Shown: positions 2,319-16,811 of the stretch, in pieces
How the letters are laid out: each line of letters opens with the position of its first letter
Position numbering within the stretch: position 1 is the stretch's first letter
IMG/VR virus record: IMGVR_UViG_2579778842_000004
Length of the DNA: 16,811 bases
Reading direction: 5' to 3' (one strand)
Source: a virus
Lineage: Duplodnaviria > Heunggongvirae > Uroviricota > Caudoviricetes
Translations under genes and position numbers: made by a program
The notes under the pieces: generated by a model
The model's input: only the letters and a program-made list of their open reading frames with translations
Database searches by the model: none
Told to the model about the DNA's origin: nothing

Positions 2319-2427
2319 GCTGCTTGGTGATTTTTACTGATGGCTTATTCGATATTCTGAATCTGTTTGTAGAGTATTGGCTTCAATGCCGCATTGTAGC
2401 TGGTTTCTTCCTAATGCGATTTTTGAT

Positions 2428-2447
2428 TATGTACACCCTTATGTACA
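2428..2447. promoter_or_regulatory. Second pair of ATGTACAC repeats (ttatgtacacccttatgtacacgg)
   Basis: Near-identical to the 2215-2238 pair, about 210 bp away on the other side of the terminator. Confidence 0.3.
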
Positions 2448-2740
2448 CGGTTTTTTCGGGTGCTTTGGTCAGAAGCCATTGCCTACATCCCTCACGATCG
2501 AGGTGTGTAACCATGTTCAGGCTTGTTGTCCTGCGCGCGCGTATTGCTCGTGAAATTGCTGTACCCAATAGTGATGTCCGAAAAAACCTCCGTTCTCACA
2601 TGAAACAGCCATATGCAACTGGTAACTGAACAGACTGGTAGACCGTTCGTTCAGTAAATACCTGATATTTTCGCCAACGAGAAATTGCGTTGGCTGGCAG
2701 GGTGCAAATTTGCACGATGGACTAACCCATTGATTCTTTC

Positions 2741-2765
2741 GAAAACCCCCATTGGGGGAAAAGCC
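2741..2765 (-). terminator. Weak terminator-like hairpin downstream of the PerC-like gene
   Basis: On the minus strand CCCCC-AAU-GGGGG followed by UUUUC; lies about 115 nt past the stop at 2875. Adjacent perfect palindrome gtgcaaatttgcac at 2702-2715. Confidence 0.3.
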
Positions 2766-2874
2766 TAACTCATTGGTTTTCCCACAATCCTCAATTTGAG
2801 GAATGTACCTAAAACCATTTTTATAGCTCCGATCCCTTCAAAGTGAGGGGTAATTTGCCAAAACAGAGAGAGCA

Positions 2875-3162
2875 TTACTGTCTCTGGCAATCTTTATCGC
2901 GATAACGCCTGAAGTACCCTCTCGCTTCCTCATCCATACCAAGAGCCGAATGAGTCCGCTTAACTGCCTGTCTTAAATCTCCGAATCTGTCTGTAGTTGC
3001 TGGTGGGCGTGCCGCCTTACGGATACATTCAGAGCGTCTGTTTGCTGCATGTTCACGTTCTTTATCGCCATCTGCCAGCATCATGACTTCTGCCCATCGT
3101 GCGGCAGCTCTCCGGTATAGCCCTTTTGACTCCAGCTCTTCAGCTTTCCTGTCCCTTATCAT
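2875..3162 (-). CDS. Small basic regulator, PerC/ANR-family-like (tentative)
   Basis: 95 aa, MIRDRKAEELESKGLYRRAAARWAEVMM... matches my recollection of the N-terminal pattern of PerC-type small activators; GAGAGG 6 nt upstream of ATG. Family assignment is from memory, not a search. Confidence 0.55.
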   Translation of the reverse strand: MIRDRKAEELESKGLYRRAAARWAEVMMLADGDKEREHAANRRSECIRKAARPPATTDRFGDLRQAVKRTHSALGMDEEARGYFRRYRDKDCQRQ

Positions 3163-3198
3163 TTCTGCCTCTCAGATTATATAGATAAGCAAAAAGGT

Positions 3199-3319
3199 GT
3201 TGGTTCAGTTGGTTCAGTTGGTTCAATTTGTAAAGATCGTTGTTTTTATTGTGTTTTTTCTGAAATATTGAACCAACATCAACTCATTTTGAACCAACAC
3301 AGCCCAGCTCTGAACCAAC
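3199..3319. repeat. Iteron cluster A: 3 tandem GTTGGTTCA (3199-3225) plus 3 inverted TGAACCAAC at 3269, 3290, 3311 (21-bp phasing)
   Basis: Read directly. The whole block is an imperfect reverse complement of cluster B (9351-9461), including the shared spacer atttgtaaaga. Confidence 0.65.
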
Positions 3320-3373
3320 AACACAGCGATAGCTTTGTGATTGGCCCGTTATTTTCTGGCTGATATTTGAGCG

Positions 3374-3404
3374 TATAACAGTGTTATACAGTGGTATACT
3401 GTAT
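3374..3404. promoter_or_regulatory. Two adjacent palindromes upstream of the RHH gene (candidate operators)
   Basis: TATAACA-g-TGTTATA (3374-3388) and ATACAGT-ggtat-ACTGTAT (3386-3404), overlapping a TATACT -10-like hexamer about 12 nt before the ATG. Confidence 0.4.
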
Positions 3405-3421
3405 GGATATTACTCACTGAT

Positions 3422-3877
3422 ATGGTCTTTGCAATGAGCAAATCTAATCTGGTCGCGTTCCGCATCCCATCTGAATTGCAGGATGAGTTTAATCGGTCTG
3501 TTCTCGCTTCTGGAGGGGATAAAACCTCCTGGCTTGTTGATGCGATTCGCATGAAGCTGGGACAGCCGGAAAAGTCTATTGATTCACGAATGCTTGGGCT
3601 GGTGGAGCGCATGGAAAAAGCTGCTGCGTCGCTTATTGCCGGAAAGCCGAACATCCCACCAAAGCCATATAACGAAACGGCAGTTATAAAGATCATTGCC
3701 GATACCATCCGACAGGGATTTGATAATGGGCGTGTGATAGCTGAACGGATCAATGAAGCAGGCTATCAAACAAAAGCTGGTAAAGCGTGGGATAAAGATA
3801 TTTACAGCGCGTGGAAGCGTCAGGGAAGCAATGCTGAAAAGTTAAAAGCGGTGATTGATTGTAAGGTCAGCGTATAA
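3422..3877 (+). CDS. Ribbon-helix-helix (Arc/MetJ/CopG-like) DNA-binding protein with C-terminal extension
   Basis: N-terminus SNLVAFRIPSELQDEFNRSVLASGGDKTSWLVDAIRMKL fits the beta-strand/helix/helix RHH pattern. No clear SD; alternative start at ATG 3434. Confidence 0.6.
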   Translation: MVFAMSKSNLVAFRIPSELQDEFNRSVLASGGDKTSWLVDAIRMKLGQPEKSIDSRMLGLVERMEKAAASLIAGKPNIPPKPYNETAVIKIIADTIRQGFDNGRVIAERINEAGYQTKAGKAWDKDIYSAWKRQGSNAEKLKAVIDCKVSV

Positions 3878-3956
3878 ACATGAGTGCCCATTGGAAAGCT
3901 GCTTGGGCCAATACCTTTATACACCAGCAGGTGGTGACGATAGGTGAGGATCAGGA

Positions 3957-4178
3957 ATGAAAGGCAGAACGCCACACATTGAACATCAAGCCAACCACTT
4001 CTCGGATGTTCGCAATGAGATGATTGCCATTCGCGGTGATATGCACGGCTTGGAGCGTCGAATTATTGATAAGATTGATGAAAATAGAGATAAGGCCAGT
4101 GAAAATCAAAAGTGGATCATCGGCCTGTTGATTTTATCAATGCTTATCCCGCTACTTATCGCATTGGTCACAAAATGA
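3957..4178 (+). CDS. Small tail-anchored membrane protein (coiled-coil N-terminus, single C-terminal TM)
   Basis: 73 aa; C-terminal WIIGLLILSMLIPLLIALVTK is one hydrophobic helix. Topology resembles XhlA-like or holin-like small proteins, but no family confirmed. Confidence 0.5.
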   Translation: MKGRTPHIEHQANHFSDVRNEMIAIRGDMHGLERRIIDKIDENRDKASENQKWIIGLLILSMLIPLLIALVTK

Positions 4179-4699
4179 ATATCCAATGTGTATGCTGTCG
4201 ATGCTACGCGCACGTACTTGTCGCAAAATATCAGACAAAAGCCAGATTCAGAACGTCGTGATAACCACCAGCACAACAGAGAGGTCATGTAACGCGATTT
4301 ATCACACCAGATACATGTGATTGGTGTACCCGCATAAAACATCGTCATAGCGCGTCCTGTGCGCATATACGCCGATAATCAACACATCACCACCACTCTG
4401 TCTCATGTAGAGAACACTTTTATGGTATCCCCCGCCATCGTGCGCGTACTAGTCGGACGCAGTTGCAAAACTTTTTGCAACTGATACCCCTCGCGCGCGT
4501 ACTTGTCTCGAAATTGGTGTTTTGCTGTGGCAGTGATATCAGAAAAATCTTCCTGTTTCACATAAAGCGGATATGCGCGTACTGTAACGACCCCATCAAC
4601 GGGGGCGGATTTGAAATCCCGACCCAAGCTATGTACCAAATGCCATGTCTTGGATATATGATGATTGCCATTCTAAACAACGCTAAAGGGAGGGTTGGT

Positions 4700-5314
4700 G
4701 TGAGCAGAAAAGATACTAAAGAATTGCTAACTATCTGCATGGTGTACTTTTCAATTTATTTTTGTGCATACATGATAGTCCCAGATGAGTTTGAACATGG
4801 CAGTATTATTTATTCCATAACATTCTATTTTTTAGAGCTAACACCAATTTTGGCTATCCTTTTGGCAATACATATTTATTTTTCCTTAAAAAAAGAATCG
4901 ACTAATTGGGAGAAGGTATGGAGAGACAGAGGATTTCTAACATCACCTAAAGATGATGCATATGAGAGTGATTTTTCAGACTTTATAACAAACTACTACT
5001 CCAGCGAACGATTCAAAAATAGACTGTCTGATGTTTGGGAAACAGCAATGTATTCTATAGGGATTATATTATTGATACTTACTGGTATTGCTCAATATGT
5101 TTTTAACATTGACTTATCATTAAATCCTGAAAATTTAATATCGCCATTGATTTTTGGTGAGATATTGATCTTCTCATTCGGAATTTTCTTGAGTGTTGTT
5201 CTCTGCTCATTATGCAAGCTACTGACTAACAGGTATCCGGGTGAAGCAAGGAGAGCAAGAAAGGCAAATCCATATTATCTTTTATTTCCTAATGGAGACA
5301 GCAGAGATATCTAA
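4700..5314 (+). CDS. AT-rich integral membrane protein, about 4 TM helices, unknown function
   Basis: GTG at 4700 preceded by AAAGGGAGGG (5-nt spacer). Composition drops sharply in GC at about 4690. Four hydrophobic segments (LLTICMVYFSIYFCAYMIV, IIYSITFYFLELTPILAILLAIHIYF, AMYSIGIILLILTGIAQYVF, LISPLIFGEILIFSFGIFLSVVLCSLC). The track's longer start (4463) would include repeat-rich DNA. Confidence 0.6.
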   Translation: MSRKDTKELLTICMVYFSIYFCAYMIVPDEFEHGSIIYSITFYFLELTPILAILLAIHIYFSLKKESTNWEKVWRDRGFLTSPKDDAYESDFSDFITNYYSSERFKNRLSDVWETAMYSIGIILLILTGIAQYVFNIDLSLNPENLISPLIFGEILIFSFGIFLSVVLCSLCKLLTNRYPGEARRARKANPYYLLFPNGDSRDI

Positions 5315-5332
5315 GCCATCCATGGCCATCTG

Positions 5333-7348
5333 TTATTGAGCTTCCTTTTGCGATGCTTGTGCTGCTGTGGTCAGTGATTGTGTGACCGTACTGATCGCTC
5401 TGTCATATGCTGTGCTACCTTTTGGCGTATTTGCCAGACGTAACAAGGCATTTCGTATAACAGGGCTTTCGTATGCCTTCGCTGCTCCGCCTACGGCACC
5501 AGCAGCAGGAACAACAAACGCAGCCGTTTTTAGCATCCCCGCTAATACTGCTGCGTTTATGATGCCACCACCAACTAACAATCCATAAAGCTGCTGACCA
5601 TTTAAGTTTTGAACGTTCGCTTTTGCCGCGTGTCTTGTATCGTTGAGGTATTTAATAACGCCGTCCAGTTCCTTTCCATGTACGCCTTTAAAGAAAGTTG
5701 CTGATTGCTTCCTGTTCCGGTGTAACGCATTAATAAACTTCTCAACACTGATATTTCCAGACGGATCAGTCGCCTTATCTACAGCATTCTGAACTATGGC
5801 TGCTCGTGCGTTTTGCCTACCATTGTCATCCAGAAGCCTGTAAAGCTGAGAACGTTCTGATGGGCTTTGGCTAAAAACGAGTTTTGTTACATCCTCAGGC
5901 GTGGCCTTGCCGCTGGCTATTGCCTTTTGAACGCGCGTTCTTCCCATCATGTCATTGAATTTAGACCATGAGCGATCAACCCTTGCCATATTAATGGCTT
6001 CGTCTGCTCCAAGATTTTTGGCTACGGCTTTTTTCATATCCGCCGTATATGCCTTGTAGATAATATCGCTGGCTTTCTGGAGCGTATCTTTATCAACAGT
6101 GTCAGATGACGCCATAAATCGCTTTCGAAGATCGGTTCTGTTTTCCCTCGCCAGACGCAGGTCATTTGGTCCGCTGGTGATATCGTCTTTAAATTGCTGC
6201 AAGACTTTTACCGCGGCTCTATCCTGAGATTTGCCCGGGCGGCTTAACACGGCAATCTGATTGTCGATAGCTTTTACCGTGTTTGAGAGATCGACAGGGG
6301 TATCCCCCATAGCGTCAATTATGCGGTTATATCGCTTTCCTGCTGCCTCAATGAATTTTTGTTGCCCTTTAGTCGCAGATTCATAAAGCTGTTTATCAGA
6401 AATGCCACCCAGACCATCGCTAAATGTTCTGACTAAATTTTCTCGTGCTTGTTGTTGATTCAGCCGATTCTTACCGGTTCCAAAAAAAGGAACTCTTTCG
6501 CCTAATGTCTGAGCCTGACTCTGCATAAAGGTTTTATCTTTCAGCATGTCACTGGTCATTAACGGTAGGTTTCTTTCCGATGCAAAATCAACAGCGGCTT
6601 TCGCTTCCGGTGCCATATCACCGCGAACGGCCCTCGAAACGGCACTCACTGTATTCTCCAGACCCTTACCAATGCCGCCAATGCCAGCAGAGATTACCGT
6701 TTGTAACGGATCAATATCTTCTCCACCAGCAAGGCTGGTGGCTCCCTGTAGTGCTAAATCTGTAGCTGCTGATTTCCCTATGGCCCCCAGCACCGTTCCG
6801 GCCCTGCCCGCTGGTGTAAACGCCAGCGCATTAGCCAGAAACGATGCCACGTCTTGCGGCGATAAACCCGGCTTGTTCAGAGCATAATCACCGGATGGTA
6901 GGGAAACGATAGTGTTACCCTTCTCATCCTGCCTTAATTTCGCTCCCATGCTCTGAAGAATCTTTTCCTGAGATGCGTCAGAGCCGAAAAGTTGAGACCA
7001 TCGAGCTTTTAGAGCATCCATGCTGAGTGAGGTTAACTCTGGGGCAAGGTCGACATTTTGCAGTCTCTCCATCTCTGGAGTCATTCGGCTTTCGCCTGTT
7101 ATAGCATCGCGCATCGCAGCCCCAAGGCTGGCTCCCTGTTCTGCTGAACGCTCAAGCCCCTCTCTTTGCTGAGTAGCTAACTTTGCATACCCTGACGCAA
7201 GAGAGTTGTCTGCTGGCGATTGCTGAACACCTTGTTGTGTTGGTGCTGACTGACCAGCAAAATACTCATCAATGGCGGTGCCAATATCTTCGGTGCTCGT
7301 ACCATCAGGGAAGGTAAATGTCTTACCGTTTGCAGTTACTTTCATCAT
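5333..7348 (-). CDS. Large (671 aa) Ala/Gln/Gly-rich, largely helical-looking protein with C-terminal hydrophobic segment; function unknown
   Basis: Start overlaps the upstream stop (ATGA at 7348-7345). C-terminal [40 protein letters not shown] is membrane-like. No enzymatic motif recognised. Confidence 0.8.
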
Positions 7349-8736
7349 TCCACCGTAAATTGAATGCCTGATTTTGACGTGTAGCTACCTCCTGCTGATT
7401 GCTGAGTAGCTGGCTGTTGCCTTGATGATTTCTTCCCGCCATTACCGACATTAACGTTATATTGCTGGTTGTAATTGTCGGTATATTGCTGAATGTCGCG
7501 CATTGATTGTTGTAGTGCTTCAGGGCTTGAGAAATCAGGCTTTGGCATACCTTGAAAATACCTATTGGCCTCTGCTTCGGTGTTGATGCCAGATGCCCCC
7601 ATATCTCGGGCTGCCGCAATCCCCTGATTTTGCATTTTGCCCAGGATTCGCTGTGCAGCGTTGTATAGCCTCCTCTCCTCAGCACCAGATGCCCGGCTAC
7701 GAATATCTGCACCAAGAGCAAAAGAACCTGAAGAACCAGTAATACCTGTCATGAAGCCAATATCGTCAATTGATGCGCCAGAAATTGCCTCAAGATCTTT
7801 CTTCATTTCGTAATTCTGCGCATTAGCTGCCGACGTGGCCGGAGCAGCAATAGAGCCAGCTGGAACGCGAACTATGTTCCCCTCATTGTCTATACCTTCG
7901 TAGAACGCGTTAGCACCAGCACCATGAAGTTTCCCGCCTACGGTTACAGTTCTTCCGTCTGCTAGTTGAACTGTGCGCTCATTATTCCCAACCGCCCCTT
8001 TCATTGATGTTCTCTGCATCGCTAAATCCTGACCGCGCATCGTGATGTTCTGTCCTCGTGCTGTTAGCGCCTCGCCAGCCTGATTGCTGCGGATTGTCTC
8101 TGCCAACTTGTCACGCTCAATATCCCGACCTTCCATTTGATCTTTGATATCGAAGTACTTCTCATGGCCGAGAGAAAACAGTGCCAGATTACCTGCGAAG
8201 TGCTGGAAGCCCTGCGGGTCATTAACCTGCATTTCAGCAATAGTTTCTGGAGGGATACCTAAACGACGCATCTCCTTTTCGTTATCCATCATGAACCTGC
8301 CAAATGCGCCCGGACCAAGCGACGAAGCTACCTGTGCTTTAAGCGCCAGATTGCCAAAATCATCCCGCTGGGCGTCATCGACATACCCCATGCCTTTACG
8401 GACTTCCTCAAACTCTTCTGGGAATGCTGTAATAAGATTACGCATCTTCTCCCTGTCGCCGGACGCATAAGCATCTGCATAACCTTTCTGGAATGCCGCT
8501 TTACGCTCCTGCTGTTGCTGCTGCTTATAAATATCAGCAACTCCAGCCAGACCACGAAGACCTGTCAGAGCAACGTTATTTGCACCTGATCGAGCCAGTT
8601 CATTGTTTTCGCGGATCAGACCAAGCGTTGCGTTAATGTCGCTTGCCTTTGGCGCATTCTCATTTTGCGTACCGATGCCAGCCAGAAAACCACCAGAATT
8701 AATACCCTGTTGCCACGTAGCCATTGATTTACCCAC
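7345..8736 (-). CDS. Large (about 460 aa) low-complexity Gly/Ala/Gln/Asn-rich protein; function unknown
   Basis: Long ORF, translationally coupled to the 671-aa gene. Track start is GTG 8736; ATG at 8724 ([12 protein letters not shown]...) is an alternative. Confidence 0.78.
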
Positions 8737-8902
8737 GTCCAGTTAAAGTGTAAGTCAGCGCCTTATCCATTAATCCCCGAGCAATTTCGTGGATCGTTGG
8801 CGCAACTCCTACCTCTGATTTTTTACGCTGCTCCTCCTGAATTTTCTTTATCGCTTCCATTTGTTTCTCACTTATCAATACTGGCTTTACTGAAATAGCC
8901 AT
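8729..8902 (-). CDS. Possible small Lys/Glu-rich ORF (57 aa) heading the large-protein operon
   Basis: ATG at 8902 with AAGGGGG 4 nt upstream (cagttctAAGGGGGcgttATG); stop at 8729-8731, 4 nt before ATG 8724. Not in the ORF track, presumably because it is short. Confidence 0.3.
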
Positions 8903-8997
8903 AACGCCCCCTTAGAACTGTATAAAACAACAGTTATTATAATTTCATAAAACGCAACATTCATCATTGTGATTGCAAAATATGAAACAAATAGCAC

Positions 8998-9030
8998 AAA
9001 AAAATGCCACCGCTCATTAGCTGGTGGCAT
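8998..9030 (-). terminator. Rho-independent terminator closing the primase operon
   Basis: On the minus strand: stem AUGCCACC / GGUGGCAU (9004-9011 / 9023-9030) followed by U7 (complement of A-run 8998-9004). Confidence 0.5.
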
Positions 9031-9350
9031 CGTTCTGTATGTCAGGTTTTGACAGGTTTTTTATGGACTCTAAAAACTATATTTATGGTGTCGCATTACT
9101 CTTCACGGCAGGCGCTTTCCAGTTCTGCCCTTGCTTCTGGCTCCATTGGTAATTTGATTCGAAATCAGCTATGCGGATGGTTTGCTGAACAGGCATAACA
9201 ACTTCTCAGAGGCTGTTTTTTTGAACTACGAAAATTTCGTAGTGCTCACTTTCAAAAACGTCACGCCCTTGTACACAGGATTTTACGAAAGTCTCGTAAA
9301 GCACTCTCTGATGCCAGCCAGATGTTGTGCTCATCAATTCAGTCACGTTG

Positions 9351-9461
9351 TGTTGGTTCAAAATGCCGTGTTGTTGGTTCAGTGTTGGTTCAATAAAAAG
9401 AATAAAATCCTTATAAAACAATACTCTTTACAAATTGAACCAACTGAACCAACTGAACCAA
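9351..9461. repeat. Iteron cluster B: 3 GTTGGTTCA (9351, 9372, 9383) plus 3 tandem TGAACCAAC (9435-9461)
   Basis: Read directly; mirror image of cluster A, immediately downstream of the primase stop (9488). Confidence 0.65.
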
Positions 9462-9487
9462 CACCTTTTCTACGCACATGAAGAAGC

Positions 9488-12250
9488 TCATTCTTCAGAT
9501 GAGTTATAATCTCCTGGCTGGTAATTGAGTACATAAACGTTTATTTGTCGTCCCTGAATACGTGGTGATTTTCTTTGGTATCCACGACCGCTGTTTGGTG
9601 GGGTTAGCATCCCGGCTTTTTTCAACACTTCAGCAAACTGTTTTGCGTTGAAACCACATGCGATCTCCTTTTCAAATGTGGCCGGGAATGTGTAGAAAAT
9701 CATTGGGCTTTCGTCATGTTCTCCACGCTGACGGTATCCGGCTAAATCTTTGATGGGCAAATCTGCCGGGCTGTATGGAAATGGTGCAAAACGGCTAAGC
9801 CCATAGGCATTAAGAAATGCCTCCGTTTGTTCAATAATCTGCTGATGCTCTTTGTTACCTGTGCCGAACTCGCGCAACCATGCGTTATAGCTGTGCTGTA
9901 TCGCATCACGGCATGTCTGAGCATCCCAGCCTGTTACAACCTCGCCTAACAACAATGCGGCCTCCAGAATGGCAAATCGCGCGGCTACACGGTGAACCTG
10001 CTCACCATAATCGGATGGGATCAGGCTTCTCCATCTGCTTTCGCAATCACGAACAGTTTTAATAGCCTGTTGCTGGTGGTCTGCCAGCCATTTAATCCAC
10101 TCACGCCCGGCTGCGCCATGGTGATGCTGGTAAGCGTCTTTCAGTGCGTCTGCGTGCTGTTTTCCGTTCTGGTAATCGTGAAAGCGTACTGCTTTACTCA
10201 ACGGAATATTCAGCAGTCGCACCAGTTGCCCGGCTTTGGTTTTTCGCCCGGAAGTAGCGATAAATGTTTCTAAATCCATTTCTCCGGTGCTGATTGCCAC
10301 TGTGCGCCAGCGTTTTAGATCCCGGTTTCCACCATCTTTAGCGCCTTGCAGTTTCCCTACACCGTTAAATAACGCATAGGCAGACTGTGAAACACTGACA
10401 GGATCAGCGCCCTGACCAACTTCATCAAGCGGCATTAGTCCGTCATTGTGGGCGGCAGCTTCATTTGCCAGCCCCAGCGCGGTTCCGTACCACGTCAGCC
10501 GCAGTAAATCAGGGTTGCCGTATAAGCTGCTCGCCACGTTTGCCGTGGTGGTCTTACCTGCGCTCGACTGCTCATAGAAATGAATGCCGAACCCGTCAGC
10601 GCCCACCAGCCCAATCAATGGCGCTGCCAGTGCTGCGCCGATCCCGGTCATCATTGAATAGTTACCAAAGGCCAGACGCGCCACGTTATCACGCCAGCTT
10701 TTCGCGCTCCCTGAGACGGTATATCCGGCTGCGGCTGAGCTTCTCCCGCTGAACAGCACAGGATTTTCAGGTGTTCCGATGATTTCCCCATCAGGCATGA
10801 TGTACGCTCCGCATTGCCAGCCAGTGGCATGAGCAACACGCCACAATTCACGAGAGCCACTGCGTTGTAGCCAGTCTGCCAGTATTGCTCTGAGGCTGCT
10901 TTTGGTCGTGACATTTACCCCACCAGCTTTCAGGGTGCGCCAGCCTTCACGCTCGCCAATATCAGCCAGCGGGATAGCCGCTGTTGTCGGTATGCCTGCA
11001 CCGAATGCCAGCCATGAGATAATAAGATACTGATCTTTGTCGTCGCGTCCCGTGCCGATAACCTCCAACGGGGAACATAACCAGCTTTCAGCGTTGACGA
11101 TCTCCCCGCTTTCCTTGTCCACCTTCGGCGTTACCCAGAAAACGCCATCTTTGCGGCTCTCAATGTGGGGTTTTAGTGGATCTTTCTCTGGATGGTCAGT
11201 TTTACCGCCCTCAATGGCTTGCAATCGCGGTTTCACGGCTTCCCCTTGAATCTGGTACATCGAATCGTTAAACGCAGCCGTAGCGACTTCCAGCCCGTTT
11301 TGCTGGCGGTAGTCGTCCCAGTCGGCTTTGTAGTCTGTCGGCGGCAGTGCCACCCAGCCAGCCACGGATAAGGCGGCTTTCTCTGCGGCATCTTTGCCCG
11401 TGTTCGCCTGTTCGTCCTGCTGGTGGTCGTTATCTGCGGCAATGATAATCTGCGTGGCTGGATATATCCGGCGCATCACTTCGGCAACGGGTAGCAGGTT
11501 GCCCGCATCAATGGCGCACACTGTCAGCGCGTCAGGGCGCATCAGGTGGACTGATAAAGCGGTTGCCAGCCCCTCGGCAATTAAAACGCTCTGCGGCGAT
11601 TCTGGCGCGTTTACGGCGTGATATGCCCCGCGCTTTGCTGAACCTGTCAGGAGTCGCTTCTCTCCCTGCGGTGTAATGGTTTGCGCTGCTGCCACTGCGC
11701 CGGATTCGTCCACCAGCTCCAGCAATAACGAACCATCCGGCATAACCGGATAGTTAAACCCGGTCAGCCCTTTTGATTGCAGGTAATCAGATTCGCCCTG
11801 TGTGGCACTCTGGCGCATTCCGGCATACAGATGGGCAAACGTAGCCCTTCGCTGCTCTGCGTCCTCTGCTGCCTGTTTCTGGCGCTCCTGCTCACGCTGC
11901 TGGCGGTCAGCTTCCAGTTGCTCCCTTCTATGGCTCGCTGCCACCGGGTCGGATTGCGCTGCCCGGTAATCAATACCCAGAACATCAGCGACAAGAAGCG
12001 CCGCCTCTGTTGTGTCGCAGTTATTTACGCGTTTAATTAAATCCAGCCCATCACCAGCGCCGCACTGATTACAGATGAAGCTACCGCGCCCGTTGTCATC
12101 GAACCGGAATCGATCTTTGCCCCCACATGCAGGGCAGGGAGCATGACGGCGCGGAGAGTCAGGGACATTTATGTTCAGGCAGCCCAGCACATGAGGCCAG
12201 TTGTTTTCAGACGCACTGATAACCTGACGGATAAGATCAATGTTTCGCAT
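9488..12250 (-). CDS. Primase-helicase, P4 alpha-like (N-terminal zinc ribbon, TOPRIM, C-terminal P-loop NTPase)
   Basis: 920 aa. Zinc ribbon CPACGG...FICNQCG; TOPRIM-like VLIAEGLATALS ... IIIAADNDHQ; Walker-A-like FYEQSSAGKTTTANV. GGGGG 5 nt upstream of ATG. Confidence 0.9.
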   Translation of the reverse strand: MRNIDLIRQVISASENNWPHVLGCLNINVPDSPRRHAPCPACGGKDRFRFDDNGRGSFICNQCGAGDGLDLIKRVNNCDTTEAALLVADVLGIDYRAAQSDPVAASHRREQLEADRQQREQERQKQAAEDAEQRRATFAHLYAGMRQSATQGESDYLQSKGLTGFNYPVMPDGSLLLELVDESGAVAAAQTITPQGEKRLLTGSAKRGAYHAVNAPESPQSVLIAEGLATALSVHLMRPDALTVCAIDAGNLLPVAEVMRRIYPATQIIIAADNDHQQDEQANTGKDAAEKAALSVAGWVALPPTDYKADWDDYRQQNGLEVATAAFNDSMYQIQGEAVKPRLQAIEGGKTDHPEKDPLKPHIESRKDGVFWVTPKVDKESGEIVNAESWLCSPLEVIGTGRDDKDQYLIISWLAFGAGIPTTAAIPLADIGEREGWRTLKAGGVNVTTKSSLRAILADWLQRSGSRELWRVAHATGWQCGAYIMPDGEIIGTPENPVLFSGRSSAAAGYTVSGSAKSWRDNVARLAFGNYSMMTGIGAALAAPLIGLVGADGFGIHFYEQSSAGKTTTANVASSLYGNPDLLRLTWYGTALGLANEAAAHNDGLMPLDEVGQGADPVSVSQSAYALFNGVGKLQGAKDGGNRDLKRWRTVAISTGEMDLETFIATSGRKTKAGQLVRLLNIPLSKAVRFHDYQNGKQHADALKDAYQHHHGAAGREWIKWLADHQQQAIKTVRDCESRWRSLIPSDYGEQVHRVAARFAILEAALLLGEVVTGWDAQTCRDAIQHSYNAWLREFGTGNKEHQQIIEQTEAFLNAYGLSRFAPFPYSPADLPIKDLAGYRQRGEHDESPMIFYTFPATFEKEIACGFNAKQFAEVLKKAGMLTPPNSGRGYQRKSPRIQGRQINVYVLNYQPGDYNSSEE

Positions 12251-12262
12251 TCTGGCCCCCGT

Positions 12263-12865
12263 TTAGTGCGTCACTGGTGCTTCTGGGATGCCGTTTTCGT
12301 TTAGTTCGGCAATAAAGCTGTTGTGAAGATCGGCAAGCACTTCTCGCCCAAACGAAGTGAGTGTTCCCTGTTCGACATCGAACATGTTGCTGTAAAAAAT
12401 GATGGCATTCTTTGTTCCGACATCAACACCATATTTCTCGATCATTGCGCCCTCAATGTTGTTTGCCATAGCGAGGCGCTCTGCTACTGGATACAGCGGC
12501 ATGGCGACGATGCCATTGGAATAAACAGAAACCACGGAATGATTGCCACTGTCATCAATAATGCTGACGGTGCCGTTTTCCTTTCTCATTTCATTGATGA
12601 ATGCTGTTGCTATCAGCCAGCGCCACATAATCACGTGATGCTGTGATGTGTAATCGAAATATCCCTGGTTGCCGCCACTGGCAATAGCGAGATGTATAAA
12701 CATGCCTTCATCTGGTTTATCGTCATAATCCCCGGCATCCAGACGATTTACGGCATCAATATATGAGACGGTCTCAACGCGTTCTGTCATGCCATCGTTG
12801 CTGCGGTACATGATGTTTACGCCGTCAGGCGTTGCTTCTGCATGGAAAGTTAAGAAATTATTCAT
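12263..12865 (-). CDS. Hypothetical protein (200 aa)
   Basis: Start moved to ATG 12865 (MNNFLTFHAEATPDG...), which overlaps the stop of the upstream 73-aa gene. The track start 12970 would overlap that gene by 35 codons. Confidence 0.6.
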   Translation of the reverse strand: MNNFLTFHAEATPDGVNIMYRSNDGMTERVETVSYIDAVNRLDAGDYDDKPDEGMFIHLAIASGGNQGYFDYTSQHHVIMWRWLIATAFINEMRKENGTVSIIDDSGNHSVVSVYSNGIVAMPLYPVAERLAMANNIEGAMIEKYGVDVGTKNAIIFYSNMFDVEQGTLTSFGREVLADLHNSFIAELNENGIPEAPVTH

Positions 12866-13079
12866 GTTTCGCCTCGCCTGAATGATTCTGTAACTCATAT
12901 TTGCCCAACAATTCGTCTGCTTCCTGAATAGCTTCTGGTACGCCATTGAGCAGTGACATAACCGCGCCAATCATTAACTTGTCTCTGTTGCTGGGGCTGG
13001 CCCCTTCAAGCCAGAACCCTAAAACAGTCTGAACCTGTTCGATACGACATTGCGCTTCAATGAGCTGGATGTTGGTCAT
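12858..13079 (-). CDS. Small acidic hypothetical protein (73 aa)
   Basis: Member of a chain of stop/start-overlapping small ORFs on the minus strand. Confidence 0.5.
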   Translation of the reverse strand: MTNIQLIEAQCRIEQVQTVLGFWLEGASPSNRDKLMIGAVMSLLNGVPEAIQEADELLGKYELQNHSGEAKHE

Positions 13080-13339
13080 TTCGCACTCTCCGCATCGATT
13101 AAACTGATATCTATCAGAGAGGTAACTTTTTGTAGCCAGCTAGTGATTACTGTCGCCTGTTCCCCTCCCACCGATGGAAGAATCTCATTCATCACATGAA
13201 CCAGACCTGTGCGCGCTCTGGTAAGCCGTTCAGTCGTGCGATCTGCAAGAGTGAATGTGTCTGGATATGGCTCTTCACGGCTCAGCAATGATTCAATTTC
13301 CAGCTCACACGGATGACGATAAATTAAGTTGATATTCAT
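13076..13339 (-). CDS. Small acidic hypothetical protein (87 aa)
   Basis: ATGA overlap with neighbours on both sides. Confidence 0.5.
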   Translation of the reverse strand: MNINLIYRHPCELEIESLLSREEPYPDTFTLADRTTERLTRARTGLVHVMNEILPSVGGEQATVITSWLQKVTSLIDISLIDAESAK

Positions 13340-13530
13340 TTTTCACCCCCAAGAATTACCAGCTCTGCACGGGCATCGTTAACCAAAGATGAGCACGCTT
13401 TAATCGCATCCACGACATCAGTAGCGTCCATTTCTTCAGCCGAAAGACTGACAGCAACCAGGACAGCCGCTGCTTGCTCGATTAATTGAAGTGCGGACGT
13501 AAGGCGAGGGGTATTAATTGAGTTATTCAT
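13336..13530 (-). CDS. Small acidic hypothetical protein (64 aa)
   Basis: ATGA-type overlap with neighbours. Confidence 0.5.
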   Translation of the reverse strand: MNNSINTPRLTSALQLIEQAAAVLVAVSLSAEEMDATDVVDAIKACSSLVNDARAELVILGGEK

Positions 13531-13741
13531 TGGTTTCCCCCGTTTTTACTGGCATTTCGCCACCTTCCAGCAGGAAATGAACGTCACGAACGGCGAGATC
13601 CAATATCGCGAGTAACGCCTTCAGTCTTTCGTCTCGTGAGGGAGAGTTGCTCACCAGAATGTCGTTAATCACTTCTGTCAGTGTGATGATCTGGCTTGTG
13701 CGTTCGAGGGGATCCATATGCACATCGTAGGTTTTAATCAT
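13523..13741 (-). CDS. Small acidic hypothetical protein (72 aa)
   Basis: ATG 13741 with GGAGGTG 6 nt upstream; overlaps the stop of the 13734-13928 ORF (CATGATTAA). In frame with the long 13523-14551 open frame. Confidence 0.5.
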   Translation of the reverse strand: MIKTYDVHMDPLERTSQIITLTEVINDILVSNSPSRDERLKALLAILDLAVRDVHFLLEGGEMPVKTGETNE

Positions 13742-14551
13742 GTGCCACCTCCATGCGGATACGACCAGCAAAAAAGCAGACGTGATCGCGCACCAGAGAA
13801 CGGCGAGCATCGCGTTCAGACTCGGCAGCAATATGATGAATTTTGGCGGTAATTGTCGGGCAATCGCGGCGAACTGCGGCGATAATCCAGATAAATTGCG
13901 GTTTTTGGGTAGGGGTAGTAGCCAGCATGTGGCAGCCTCCTTGATTGATGGTTTATAGCCACCGCCGGAGGTCCTAAGCTCGCTGGCGGTGGACTGTACA
14001 GGGTTAGGACTACTGGCAATCAAGGAAACCAGCCTGACCGAAGTCAGCCCCATACAGCCCACCATTGATAAGGTGTGCGTGTGCGCCGATACAAAAAAAG
14101 ACGCTGGCGCGTCATGTATCGCCTCGATTGCCTGCGGGGTCCTAATCCCGGCACCCGTTTTATGAGGTGCCTTATAACCATAAACCGTGTTGCCGCATAA
14201 CGGCAAGCTCTTTTTTATGGACTCCGAAAACTCACTATTGGAAGCACCAGATGCACAATACATCGCGCTCATTTCGTTAACGTCACGCACGTGGACGAAT
14301 GTTTTTGTGGAGTCACTACACGAGCAGAACAGGTGATCTACGACCAGAAATTCTCTGGCGCAGCCGCTGACCTTCTCAACGCTAACACCATCGACCGTAA
14401 TTTCTGACATAGTTAAGGCATCCGCTCCTACCACCAGCAAATGATAAACTTTGCTTGTATCTGCTGTATTAATGCCTGACTTTGCTGTCATATTGCTGGA
14501 TTTTGGCGACATACCAGCCAGTGAAAATGTCTTCTTCTGGACGGTTAGCAT
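13523..14551 (-). CDS. Long uninterrupted open frame (342 codons); N-terminal about 150 codons look coding, middle section coincides with RNA structures; possibly composite or frameshifted
   Basis: ATG 14551 has GGAGG 7 nt upstream and overlaps the upstream stop (ATGCTAA). No in-frame stop until 13523; a T7 run sits at 14099-14093. Alternative annotation is the two small ORFs listed separately. Confidence 0.3.
13734..13928 (-). CDS. Small basic hypothetical protein (64 aa)
   Basis: ATG 13928 preceded by textbook SD AAGGAGG (13942-13936, 7-nt spacer). The SD lies in the 3' arm of a predicted RNA stem. Confidence 0.45.
   Translation of the reverse strand: MLATTPTQKPQFIWIIAAVRRDCPTITAKIHHIAAESERDARRSLVRDHVCFFAGRIRMEVAHD
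13936..14113 (-). promoter_or_regulatory. Structured RNA leader/attenuator-like region (minus-strand transcript)
   Basis: 5' to 3' on the minus strand: hairpin GACGC-GCCA-GCGUC then U7 (14113-14093); CUGAC-UUCG-GUCAG tetraloop hairpin (14047-14034); 9-bp long-range stem CCUUGAUUG (14025-14017) pairing CAAUCAAGG (13947-13939), which contains the SD of the 13928 ORF and encloses an 8-bp hairpin CCACCGCC/GGCGGUGG (13992-13959). Confidence 0.4.
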
Positions 14552-14727
14552 TTGTTAACCTCCGCGAACTCCTTCATGAAACGCGCCAGCGGTTGTACGC
14601 ATGGCGATTGATACCCGTCGCGATAGAACGTCACTCGGTTGTGAGACACGCTTTCGACAGTAACGAGTGCTCCGTGGGCATCTTTGTAGCGTTTTTGAGG
14701 TTGTGGTGTTCCTGTAGGCTTAAACAT
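14545..14727 (-). CDS. Small hypothetical protein (60 aa)
   Basis: ATG 14727 with GGAGG 6 nt upstream, 4 nt after the AntA-like stop (MFKPTGTPQPQKRYKDAHGALVTVESV...). The track start 14814 would overlap the upstream gene. Confidence 0.5.
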   Translation of the reverse strand: MFKPTGTPQPQKRYKDAHGALVTVESVSHNRVTFYRDGYQSPCVQPLARFMKEFAEVNKC

Positions 14728-15553
14728 GGACCGCCTCCAGACGCTTAGCGAGCCAGCGTTGCGACAGGCGGGTGAGTTCTCCTTTGCGCTGCTCATATTC
14801 CATGCCCATATCAATTAACGTGATATTGGTGCTTTCGAGATATGAGAGGTGCTCAAGTTGTTCTGCGTTCATATGGTCGCGAGGTTCGCCAGAATAGCCA
14901 TTTATCCGCGCCCACTGCTTAGCAGTTAGCCCACCAAGAACGATACGAGAAATCATATTGCTCTCGTTTGTGTAGTGGTGTTGCTGCGTCGTTTTCCCCT
15001 GCTCGGCACGGGCCATATTCAGCGCATCGCACATTGGCTTAAAGTTGTTTGCGGCACTGATACGGGCTTTTAGCTGGCGACGATAGCGGGCGGCGATTTC
15101 AGGAACGCTACGCTGTAATTCTTCCTCGCACTGGATGAAATAACGGCGGATAGCGCGCCCCTGATCATTGCGTTCGATCATTGCCAGTTCTTTCGCCATT
15201 CCGACACTTAACAGATAGTCTTTGCCGGGTCTGCCAGAGTGCTTAATCTTGCTGTAAGCCGTGCCATTCGGGCTTTTCCCCAAATTTGGGGAAATTGTTT
15301 TATGGACTGAGTAATCGTGCCCAATGGTGAAGTCATATTCAGAGATGCGATCAGTGATCCATGTAGAGAAGTCTTTTCCCACGCCCAACGCTTTGTGTAA
15401 CGCTTTTGCGCTAACAATATTGGTTTCACGCCCACCGATATGACCAGGAATAACCGGGACAATTGCGGCAAATTCATTACCGTTAATTGTGCCCAGAGAG
15501 GCGTTCAGATGAGGGGCGGCCTCAGAAATTAATCTGCTTTTTTCGATGTTCAT
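14720..15553 (-). CDS. Phage antirepressor-like protein (AntA-type N-terminal domain)
   Basis: 277 aa; N-terminal segment ...NIVSAKALHKALGVGKDFSTWITDRISEYDFTIGHDY... matches the AntA/Bro-type signature as I recall it; GGAGA 7 nt upstream. Confidence 0.7.
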   Translation of the reverse strand: MNIEKSRLISEAAPHLNASLGTINGNEFAAIVPVIPGHIGGRETNIVSAKALHKALGVGKDFSTWITDRISEYDFTIGHDYSVHKTISPNLGKSPNGTAYSKIKHSGRPGKDYLLSVGMAKELAMIERNDQGRAIRRYFIQCEEELQRSVPEIAARYRRQLKARISAANNFKPMCDALNMARAEQGKTTQQHHYTNESNMISRIVLGGLTAKQWARINGYSGEPRDHMNAEQLEHLSYLESTNITLIDMGMEYEQRKGELTRLSQRWLAKRLEAVHV

Positions 15554-15565
15554 TTTCAGTCTCCG

Positions 15566-15997
15566 TTAGGCGGCGTTAAACGCGTTCGGGTAGAGTTTCA
15601 GAATGTCGGCAATTTCCTGCTGAGAAAGTCCGTTGTGATCATTTATGTTCGCAAGATGGTTAACATGAGTGATCACTTTCAGAACATCACCACGGCAGGA
15701 GAAACGGTAGCGAAGGTGTGTTCCGATACCATCAGGATTCTTTTCGTCGATACGCTCCAGAGTGATTCCAAGCTGGCGTTCTAACTCTGTTGCATAGTTA
15801 CGACCAGAAGACAGACGGCAGTAGCGAAGAATGTCATTTTCTGTCCATCCCTCTATACCAGTACGCAGCATATAGACTCTGGCACGATGCTTTTTCGGTG
15901 TGCGCTTTGGTTCTTGAAGGGATTTTGTAAGGGGCGTAACATCAGATACGCGAATATCTGAATTAGCCGCCTGTAATGGGCGGTTTTTCTTTTCCAT
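15566..15997 (-). CDS. Hypothetical protein (143 aa), translationally coupled to the AlpA-like gene
   Basis: ATG overlaps the AlpA-like stop (TGATG); AAGGTGG 5 nt upstream. Confidence 0.6.
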   Translation of the reverse strand: MEKKNRPLQAANSDIRVSDVTPLTKSLQEPKRTPKKHRARVYMLRTGIEGWTENDILRYCRLSSGRNYATELERQLGITLERIDEKNPDGIGTHLRYRFSCRGDVLKVITHVNHLANINDHNGLSQQEIADILKLYPNAFNAA

Positions 15998-16200
15998 CAG
16001 GCCACCTTCCCGCGGCGTTCTGCCAGCCAGTTGTGAATCTCAACCGCATCAAACGCAGTTATTTTTTCTCCCAGCTTTACCGGACGTGGTAGTGAACCGT
16101 TTCTTACTTTACGGTCGATGGTGGATACACTAACGCCCAGCAATTCAGCCAGGCGGAAGCGTCTGATATAGCCTTTTGTAGGAATAGTGTCGGTGTTCAT
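15997..16200 (-). CDS. alpA: AlpA-family / excisionase-type helix-turn-helix regulator
   Basis: 67 aa; RFRLAELLGVSVSTIDRKVRNGSLPRPVKLGEKITAFDAVEIHNWL fits the AlpA/Xis HTH pattern; first gene of the long minus-strand operon. Confidence 0.75.
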   Translation of the reverse strand: MNTDTIPTKGYIRRFRLAELLGVSVSTIDRKVRNGSLPRPVKLGEKITAFDAVEIHNWLAERRGKVA

Positions 16201-16204
16201 GCTT

Positions 16205-16259
16205 CCCGTAACCTCTTAGCGATAGTTGTTGCTTCGTTACGGGAGGAAGTATCTGTACA
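16205..16259 (-). promoter_or_regulatory. Leader of the AlpA-like gene: 8-bp inverted repeat around the SD plus one TGTACA motif
   Basis: CCCGTAAC (16205-16212) and GTTACGGG (16236-16243) separated by 23 nt; AAGAGG lies at the loop/stem junction; tgtaca at 16254-16259. Confidence 0.35.
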
Positions 16260-16270
16260 TATATGAACAA

Positions 16271-16298
16271 TAAAAAGGCACAGTAATGATACTGTGCC
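16271..16298 (-). terminator. Rho-independent terminator downstream of gene X
   Basis: Minus strand: stem GGCACAGU / ACUGUGCC (16298-16291 / 16284-16277), 6-nt loop, then U5 (complement of A-run 16272-16276); 17 nt after the stop at 16315. Confidence 0.55.
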
Positions 16299-16314
16299 TG
16301 AATAGTTAGCTACT

Positions 16315-16811
16315 CTACCCCTTACCGTTGGCGGCAGCACGTAAGTGTCTCAAAATCACATCTTCATTTGTGATTGCTAACGGTGGAATTTCGTCTTTAT
16401 GAGCCACTATGCAATCCCGCCACTTCTCAGGGCTTATTTCTTTCTTTTTGCCACGGCATTCATCAGGATACTTTGACAAAAGATATATTGCTGATTTGAA
16501 AAGTTTTTCCCTGTTTTCAGCATGTCTCTCGGCATTATGGTTGCTATTTTTTATTTCAGGTATTAGTTCCTGTTCTACCGCCATTTCGTATCGTTTTTTG
16601 CTCTTAGCTGCGTCAAAACTTCCATTAACCTTTGCGTCGTGAAGATATTCTAAATCAGCCTTTGTTATATAAATGTTTTTATCTGACAGGCTACTCAGGT
16701 GAATCTGGGAACTTTGCATTTTGAATTTATATAGATCACAATCAAATGTTGCTTCAAGTCGCACATATGGCTCTCCACATTCTTGTGAATGATAATGTCG
16801 TGTTGTACTAC
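16315..16811 (-). CDS. Hypothetical AT-rich protein ('gene X'), 3' part; 5' end runs off the window end
   Basis: Frame is open from the window end to the stop at 16315. The last 54 codons (LSKYPDECRGKKKEISPEKWRDCIVAHKDEIPPLAITNEDVILRHLRAAANGKG) are unique; the rest duplicates 1-332 in the same frame. Confidence 0.6.
   Translation of the reverse strand, partial: STTRHYHSQECGEPYVRLEATFDCDLYKFKMQSSQIHLSSLSDKNIYITKADLEYLHDAKVNGSFDAAKSKKRYEMAVEQELIPEIKNSNHNAERHAENREKLFKSAIYLLSKYPDECRGKKKEISPEKWRDCIVAHKDEIPPLAITNEDVILRHLRAAANGKG
16480..16811. repeat. Terminal direct repeat, right copy (matches 1-332)
   Basis: See left copy; offset between copies is 16479 bp. Confidence 0.95.

Follow-up and report, generated by a model that had tools for sequence, protein, structure and literature searches.

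The operon at positions 5333–8902 of the IMG/VR virus record IMGVR_UViG_2579778842_000004 (the window hereafter denotes the whole 16 811-nucleotide stretch of this record) encodes two large proteins that were securely identified by sequence as genuine homologues of gp20 and gp16, the DNA-ejection proteins of phage P22. The surrounding element is an island of Escherichia coli that is related to EcCIMP1, a phage-inducible chromosomal island (PICI) described in E. coli MP1 (Pick, Stadel and Raivio, ISME J 2025; PMC11773190). The region is probably the cargo operon of an EcCIMP1-like PICI and would act as a DNA-entry module, in which the satellite carries its own ejection proteins together with an exclusion protein of the SieA family. 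This reading is built on the homologies, synteny, island boundaries, slot structure and purifying selection that were observed and are described below.

The 459-residue product of the upstream gene matches Pfam PF16928 (Inj_translocase, the DNA/protein translocase of the P22 injectosome) with 280.5 bits (E = 1.2e-83; cut-off 29.7 bits), covering positions 1–217 of the 218-position profile, and matches phrog_917 with E = 3e-196. Its alignment with P22 gp20 extends from the first to the last residue of both proteins with 300 of 473 positions identical (63%), and it is 92% identical to gp20 of a CUS-3-type prophage in E. coli S88. The 671-residue product of the downstream gene aligns along its entire length with phrog_770 ('DNA transfer protein'; E = 8e-167) and, by BLASTP, shares 30% identity with P22 gp16 across 482 residues (E = 8e-54). 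Its identity is 71% to ORF13 of phage N7, the open reading frame (ORF) that follows gp7–gp20 in that phage, and 95% to gp16 of the S88 prophage. Gene 16 directly follows gene 20 in the same order in P22, N7, S88 and Kapi1, and RefSeq names the proteins 'phage DNA ejection protein' or, in some genomes, 'P22-gp16 family phage DNA ejection protein'. The resemblance to P22 gp20/gp16 that the original prediction proposed is thus one of true homology according to Pfam, PHROG, BLASTP and full-length alignment. Neither gene is a chance ORF, because the matches to curated families reach E values of 1e-83 to 1e-196 and comparison with copies in phages and other islands gives a ratio of nonsynonymous to synonymous substitution rates (dN/dS) of 0.11–0.42 overall (0.21–0.29 for gene 20 and 0.11–0.42 for gene 16). 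Near-identity to prophage genes, the varied alleles found in islands and these low ratios argue that genes 20 and 16 have been exchanged with phages and kept functional. A sequence search of the PDB returned no solved homologue of either ejection protein, NCBIfam contained no match for the operon proteins and PADLOC assigned no defence model to the two large proteins or to the membrane protein described below.

Both large ORFs are real and lie on the minus strand, but the operon is not limited to two genes as first proposed: a third ORF, p57, precedes them and ends 4 nt ahead of the gene 20 ATG. The 463-residue reading of the upstream gene corresponds to an existing ORF (7345–8736, from a GTG at 8736), but the 459-residue form that starts at ATG 8724 is the most likely product, since its N-terminus is identical to that of P22 gp20 and it is also the RefSeq call. 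The proposed coupling of the two genes was confirmed, with the gene 20 stop codon and the gene 16 start codon overlapping in ATGA (7345–7348). The description of both proteins as rich in Ala, Gln, Gly and Asn suits the 459-residue protein (A 12.6%, G 11.8%, Q 7.8% and N 6.8%) and applies less well to the 671-residue protein (A 13.6%, G 8.5%, L 8.3%, S 7.6% and Q 6.4%); the long Gly/Ala-rich hydrophobic segment reported at the C-terminus of the latter is present at residues ~587–625, with a Kyte–Doolittle hydropathy of >1.7. Upstream of p57, a terminator-like hairpin with arms at 9030–9023 and 9011–9004 and an adjoining T run is followed by TATAAT at 8941–8936 without a good −35 element. A scan for consensus promoters and terminators gave nothing useful near the operon start; the hairpin was missed because its 11-nt loop exceeds the limit of the scanner.

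Downstream of gene 16, a convergent gene encodes a multi-pass membrane protein that homology identifies as a divergent member of the SieA superinfection-exclusion family. The protein has 204 residues from the RefSeq GTG start; translation from an ATG at 4658/4661 instead would extend it by the leader MMIAILNNAKGRVGV. BLASTP aligns it with P22 SieA at 30% identity over 108 residues (E = 2e-8), and phrog_7745 ('SieA-like') is its sole family match. A word-indexed protein search returned only four matches and the link to SieA needed an exhaustive HMMER profile search of 1.84 billion proteins, which found 42 relatives, the closest of which are proteins of ~200 residues from Serratia, Providencia and Proteus. 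In an alignment of 34 sequences (32 relatives, the query and P22 SieA), 31 match phrog_7745 and no other family, the motifs YSSE.F.NR.SD and GRYPGEA are common to all aligned relatives, Asn107, Arg108 and Pro180 are invariant and Asp111 and Arg178 are nearly so. A simple Kyte–Doolittle scan, used in place of a dedicated topology predictor, places hydrophobic segments at residues 9–27, 39–57, 112–137 and 150–168, the C-terminal ones of which parallel those of P22 SieA. P22 holds sieA in the same place, right after gene 16 on the opposite strand. Every sieA gene examined by Leavitt et al. (mBio 2024; PMC10883804) sat in a P22-like prophage; the island gene has neither this context nor a gene 9 neighbour, as it is carried by a satellite without gene 9. 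No match to the island protein was found by tblastn against 50 697 phage records.

The SieA-like allele is present in 102 genomes at an identity of at least 98.7%, and a further 366 genomes match only the first 54 bases of the gene and carry other alleles there. These include a 131-residue membrane protein in strain 2014EL-1346-6 and an allele homologous to the 109-residue membrane protein that follows gene 16 in a CUS-3-type prophage. Alleles in this position start with the same 14 codons (MIAILN[KN]AKGRVGV), preceded by shared upstream DNA, and then diverge. The idea of a convergent envelope-protein gene as a constant partner of the cargo did not generalize beyond E. coli, and most convergent ORFs elsewhere looked spurious.

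Gene 20, gene 16 and the SieA-like gene occupy a variable slot in an otherwise conserved backbone. Nucleotide homology to EcCIMP1 (locus L002) halts at window position 8756 and restarts at 4625, and homology to the P22-like prophage of S88 covers only 8734–5314, that is, genes 20 and 16, with 93–97% nucleotide identity. The junctions of the S88 homology fall 10 nt before the gene 20 ATG and 19 nt past the gene 16 stop codon, and the small-terminase gene (terS) of the S88 prophage is 100% identical to that of phage CUS-3. We propose that genes 20 and 16 represent the CUS-3 allelic type and that the module was captured from P22-like podophages. In a third E. coli island at the same site (strain 2014EL-1346-6), gene 20 is 75% and gene 16 44% identical to the Kapi1 genes. 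These homology breaks and allelic differences mark the slot as modular and filled with phage alleles.

Leader ORF p57 belongs to the conserved island backbone, as the homology with EcCIMP1 and other islands reaches position 8756, which lies inside it. Among 78 loci from species-representative genomes, fetched with the primase as query, p57 is kept in ~31, and in most of these genes for virion DNA delivery come directly next. The P22-type set 14-7-20-16 follows p57 in Escherichia sp. and Leclercia. At nine loci a ~108-residue ORF is followed by a tape measure protein of 857–1245 residues, which is split or truncated at two more; example matches are phrog_1538 (E = 1e-152) and phrog_1107 (1271 bits). 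Other loci encode SLT transglycosylase-domain proteins of the internal-virion or injection type (phrog_1044, phrog_992, phrog_873, phrog_342, phrog_418 and phrog_684). To judge by established phage biology, what would unite these cargoes is their ejection from the virion and the path for DNA that they make through the cell envelope. The loci with tape measure genes were also considered as PICIs embedded in a helper, which was ruled out by their boundaries (yicC/yicG, tRNA-Thr or attachment-site (att) repeats) and by genes of full length: yicC and a 14-bp att repeat delimit the Chimaeribacter island (L023), tRNA-Thr and a 19-bp repeat that holds the EcCIMP1 core delimit the Lonsdalea island (L016), and the Enterobacter island (L015) sits between yicC and yicG. 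The AlphaFold2 model of p57 has an extended N-terminus and two helices (predicted local distance difference test score 75) and gave no significant match in a Foldseek search of the PDB. It is possibly a small DNA-binding regulator. A ribbon–helix–helix fold was considered and is unsupported, given that the model contains only two helices and that the Foldseek search of the PDB was empty.

The window is a circular permutation, or circularized form, of an island that is integrated in the 3′ end of yicC. In a blastn comparison with the chromosome of the porcine enterotoxigenic E. coli strain UMNK88, the window matches in two pieces, 2353–16811 and 1–2365, which overlap by 13 bp and fall at neighbouring ends of a single 16.48-kb island flanked by yicC and dinD. 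The termini of the window share 332 bp (1–332 and 16480–16811) with one mismatch, at position 49. This permuted order and terminal overlap would be consistent with an excised circle or with a concatemer junction, as opposed to the chromosomal arrangement; the attP junction sequence was not found in IMG/VR, which thus adds nothing independent in favour of a packaged or circular form. At least 80% of the island is present in at least 55 of 5426 complete E. coli genomes, and the survey of homologous elements found genes 20 and 16 intact in at least 55 complete genomes of this species. Hosts include porcine and human pathogenic E. coli. The UMNK88 chromosome also has a second place that resembles genes 20 and 16.

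In addition to the genes listed in Table 1, the island encodes AntA/B, an Ash-family protein and a PerC-family virulence regulator. As expected of a PICI, it combines an integrase, AlpA, a primase and att repeats, has a size of 16.48 kb (within the range of 15–20 kb) and lacks structural and lysis genes. As the original prediction stated, no homologue of a capsid, portal or terminase protein accompanies the integrase and primase in the window, and homologues of gp7 and gp14 were likewise not found there. The same prediction called the element a P4-like replicon. It is indeed an integrase/primase island, but an EcCIMP1-like PICI describes it better: the capsid-size and decoration genes of P4, those for Psu, Delta and Sid, were not found in the RefSeq annotation of the island or when its larger ORFs were compared with Pfam and PHROG (a comparison that did not take in every one of the smallest ORFs), and the backbone is shared with EcCIMP1. 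The iterons that follow the primase match the corresponding regions of other islands at 77–80% and are likely to mark the replication origin. A second, similar iteron cluster lies at 3199–3316, upstream of PerC, so that the two clusters flank the cargo slot. The Ash-family ORF (13523–14551) has 342 codons, with the Ash domain confined to residues 124–219, and its EcCIMP1 counterpart is annotated as a truncated pseudogene that retains the 25-bp motif described below. A 321-residue ORF next to the integrase (window 16315–16811 and 1–~500; L001:11623–12588) has no Pfam or PHROG match.

Table 1. Features of the window and related sites. Positions without a locus prefix refer to the window; L001 is the UMNK88 locus and L002 is EcCIMP1.
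Feature	Position	Strand	Basis
p57 leader ORF, 57 aa, first gene of the operon	8729–8902	−	ORF read; RefSeq WP_001018523.1
Gene 20 homologue, 459 aa	7345–8724	−	PF16928, phrog_917, P22 gp20 alignment
Gene 16 homologue, 671 aa	5333–7348	−	phrog_770, BLASTP against P22 gp16, RefSeq
SieA-like multi-pass membrane protein gene, convergent with gene 16	4700–5314	+	BLASTP, phrog_7745, HMMER
Variable cargo slot (gene 20, gene 16, SieA-like gene)	4625–8756		Break in backbone homology
Putative operon control region (terminator-like hairpin, then TATAAT)	8903–9040	−	Read from sequence
Shared-leader membrane-protein alleles	4658–4700; L160:9012–9407; L161:9012–9401; L005:17491–17820		
Degenerate non-coding copy of the terS-like motif, TAGTTTTTAGAGTCCATAAAAAAC, upstream of the operon	9056–9079	−	
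Iteron cluster, 3× GGTTCAGTT, then 3× TGAACCAAC	9349–9469	−	Sequence reading
Primase-helicase (Zn-ribbon, TOPRIM, DUF927)	9488–12250	−	Pfam, RefSeq
25-bp motif TGAGTTTTCGGAGTCCATAAAAAAG, inside the Ash-family ORF	14210–14234	−	Exact match to terS stretch
Other sites of the 25-bp motif	L002:23984–24008 (EcCIMP1); L007:7288–7312		
AlpA-family regulator	15997–16200	−	Pfam PF05930, E = 2e-8
Tyrosine integrase	897–2156	−	RefSeq WP_001555742.1, mapped from L001 (UMNK88) 10268–11527
attP-type junction at the yicC 3′ end, core CAGATTCA	2353–2365		blastn against UMNK88
Non-P22 cargo behind p57, examples among L007–L084	L011:9466–12983; L023:14093–18042; L018:17435–22256; L043:13631–21648		

A 25-bp motif links the island to CUS-3-type phages, its putative helpers, in a further respect. 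The sequence TGAGTTTTCGGAGTCCATAAAAAAG recurs exactly in the terS gene of a CUS-3-type prophage (L005:3880–3904, E = 6e-6) between dissimilar flanks. A 24-mer of it was found in 74 IMG/VR contigs, where 56 copies belong to terS genes that neighbour terL and portal genes, 17 to island Ash ORFs and one is unclear. The degenerate copy upstream of the operon also occurs in the F8 island and in L007, and the Leclercia island (L036) carries two tandem copies upstream of p57 (15362–15421) and another near the island end (22291–22315). Across 1.58 Mb of island loci, 23 copies of the 11-bp core GAGTCCATAAA were counted where 0.75 would be expected (an excess of ~30-fold), and every copy is on the gene strand. 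The pac sites of P22-like phages lie inside their terS genes, as is established for P22. The motif is a candidate pac-site mimic, since it is identical to a stretch of terS; alternatively, it could encode a conserved peptide (EFSESIKK) or bind a regulator. Kapi1 has an Sf6-type terS without the 25-bp motif and was ruled out as its source; a helper terS without the motif would fit the very low transduction of EcCIMP1. A candidate pac mimic of this kind predicts which phages serve as efficient helpers.

The likely working of the module can be sketched from EcCIMP1 and from P22. EcCIMP1 excises only with the P22-like podophage Kapi1, requires its own AlpA as master activator and is transduced by Kapi1 at low frequency; it raises superinfection immunity without a recognisable defence system, and its genes EcCIMP1_017 through EcCIMP1_019 encode 'DNA transfer'/DUF2824-like hypothetical proteins for which a role in packaging was proposed (PMC11773190). 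In P22, mutations that escape SieA map to gp16 (G532W and P546S) and to gp20 (T338I, T341I and G350D), and an exchange of gp20 and gp16 succeeds only when both are replaced together, whereas gp7 is interchangeable (PMC10883804). For the present island, we infer that the lytic growth of a P22-like helper would induce the element through AlpA, as in EcCIMP1, and that the operon would then be transcribed. Island gp20 and gp16 would be loaded into helper procapsids beside the gp7 of the helper; an island with genes 20 and 16 and without gene 7 fits this step, because the two proteins are exchanged as a pair and gp7 is interchangeable. Once incorporated in the virion, they would build the trans-envelope conduit for satellite DNA in the next cell. 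A pair of its own could let the satellite set which recipients can be entered, since exclusion of the SieA type acts on gp20 and gp16. In a cell that holds the island, the SieA-like protein, to judge by its family, would block DNA injection by incoming P22-like phages, and such a block would account for the unexplained superinfection immunity of EcCIMP1-type islands.

Several observations weigh against this reading. Island gp20 retains the wild-type residues at the equivalents of Thr338, Thr341 and Gly350, and island gp16 retains that of Gly532, which aligns with Gly584 just upstream of the hydrophobic segment; the wild-type residues at these escape positions mean that the island pair shows no sign of resistance to exclusion. 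CUS-3-type ejection proteins are, moreover, sensitive to P22 SieA (PMC10883804). Ejection proteins enter procapsids before the DNA does, so that helper and satellite particles would both be loaded without selectivity, and transduction of EcCIMP1 by Kapi1 is very poor, at ~5e3 particles per millilitre (PMC11773190). Taken by itself, the curated profile gives a weak match to SieA (E = 2e-4), and the SieA profile matched no ORF in the 78 related loci. EcCIMP1, the island with the immunity phenotype, has an unrelated lipoprotein in the SieA position; this protein, which has no PHROG match, is a candidate for the immunity of EcCIMP1.

The same genes could be turned against the helper. Island gp20 and gp16 might act as dominant-negative subunits that co-assemble with a helper of another ejection-protein type, so that a mixed conduit fails, the helper virion is poisoned and the bacterial population is protected. 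Virions in which gp16 or gp20 alone was replaced are indeed non-infectious, even though foreign gp16 is incorporated (PMC10883804), and satellites often sabotage helper assembly, with tail-assembly inhibitors known from PICIs and from the PLE satellites of Vibrio cholerae (PMC11364771; PMC12987554). We nevertheless regard interference as unlikely: the ejection proteins of EcCIMP1 are only 24–29% identical to those of Kapi1, yet Kapi1 titres were not lowered after induction, poisoning would disable the particles of the satellite itself and no PADLOC defence model was matched. The Tai tail-assembly-inhibition systems of PICIs were set aside, as these are small proteins directed against J or gp26 and unrelated to the operon genes. 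An insurance function, in which the island proteins permit mobilization by decayed or incompatible prophages without functional genes 20 and 16, seems quite unlikely too. It would agree with the complementation of a Kapi1 xis deletion by EcCIMP1 alpA_1 (PMC11773190), with the presence of a Kapi1-like prophage in only two of 21 EcCIMP1 strains and with island genes that are near-identical in type to those of a resident CUS-3-like prophage. A prophage that has lost genes 20 and 16, however, is usually short of other late genes as well, and complementation leaves unexplained both the linked SieA-like gene and the switch to tape measure and internal virion proteins in other genera.

That the operon is a passenger, a fragment of a P22-like prophage without a role in the island in which at most the membrane-protein moron is selected, is very improbable. 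The recent exchange with prophages (93–97% nucleotide identity) and the occurrence of P22-type genes in only a few of the 78 primase loci would be expected of such a relic. They have to be set against two ORFs that are intact in at least 55 genomes with dN/dS well under 1, junctions placed precisely 10 nt before gene 20 and 19 nt past gene 16, and three allelic types of ejection protein that occupy the same position behind the same leader ORF in independent islands. Thus, we favour the DNA-entry module, in which the satellite supplies its own ejection proteins and a SieA-family protein. A wider version of it, which we put forward tentatively and hold with rather less than even confidence, is that a widespread family of satellites in Enterobacterales shares a p57-headed slot for ejected conduit proteins matched to the helper: P22-type gp(14-7-)20-16 for podophages, internal virion proteins with a transglycosylase for other podophages, and a small upstream ORF, possibly for a chaperone, plus a tape measure protein for long-tailed helpers. 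The E. coli slot would add an entry-blocking protein of the SieA type, so that satellites would both customize and police DNA entry, and they might be packaged by means of the 25-bp pac mimic.

RefSeq names already capture what the two proteins are, and EcCIMP1 is a published relative of the island. The matched ejection pair, the linkage of a SieA-family gene to it on a satellite, the modular slot fed by phages and the tape measure or internal virion cargo in other genera seem to be without an earlier description in the literature searched. Satellites are known for capsid theft and for the redirection of packaging, and a tape measure protein of their own was shown only recently, in the unrelated PLEs of Vibrio. 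The island and its relatives suggest that the same strategy exists in enterobacterial PICIs and extends to the podovirus ejection proteins, which are the least understood virion components. Genes 20 and 16 linked to a SieA-family gene would form a natural system for the study of a DNA-entry block and its bypass, and the slot offers candidate genes for two puzzles of EcCIMP1, the role of the genes downstream of the primase and the cause of superinfection immunity. The route of island transfer is of practical relevance in view of the pathogenic E. coli hosts and the PerC-type virulence regulator on board.

With the P22-like phages P22, CUS-3 and N7, the operon shares colinear full-length homologues in the same order with the same stop/start overlap. 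It differs in being encoded by a satellite without genes 14, 7 or other virion genes, and in lying behind an island leader ORF and promoter region, whereas the ejection genes of these phages belong to the late operon. The SieA-like protein resembles P22 SieA (PMC10883804) as a small multi-pass inner-membrane protein that is encoded after gene 16 on the opposite strand, and the motifs (F/Y)S.E.F.NR..D and GRYPGEA of P22 SieA are also found in it. The two are only ~30% identical, over the C-terminal half alone, and the N-terminus of the island protein extends ~40–55 residues further and contains an additional hydrophobic segment. P22 SieA is borne by a prophage and the island protein by a satellite.

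EcCIMP1 is the closest described element. It shares with the island AlpA, a 143-residue ORF, AntA/B, DUF4222, Ash, small ORFs, the TOPRIM/DUF927 primase, a p57-type ORF and PerC, with 93–96% nucleotide identity on both flanks of the cargo slot, and in both islands the ejection-protein genes stand directly behind the leader ORF. The integrases and sites differ, EcCIMP1 being inserted at tRNA-Thr and the present island at the yicC 3′ end. According to RefSeq, the EcCIMP1 slot contains a small ORF, a DUF2824 protein (gp14-like), a 225-residue ORF (gp7-like), an ejection protein and a 906-residue transglycosylase protein. EcCIMP1 thus carries a complete 14-7-20-16 set, only 24–25% identical to the window proteins, and where the present island has the SieA-like gene it encodes a 232-residue predicted lipoprotein (MIKNLLLILSLSLLAGC...; L002:11749–12447).

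A parallel from outside this family is provided by the PLE satellites of V. cholerae, which build their own tape measure protein and chaperone into satellite virions, and of which PLE11 also encodes Rta, a tail-blocking defence protein directed against the tape measure of the helper (Nature 2026; PMC12987554). The PLEs are unrelated elements with a myovirus helper and use a tape measure protein instead of podovirus ejection proteins. Incorporation into PLE virions was seen by western blot and mass spectrometry, and the dependence of EcCIMP1 on a P22-like helper is likewise experimental; the corresponding steps for the present island are predicted. The likeness lies in the proposed strategy: a satellite puts its own ejected, conduit-forming component in the place of the one from the helper, and a linked gene product can counteract the version of the helper.

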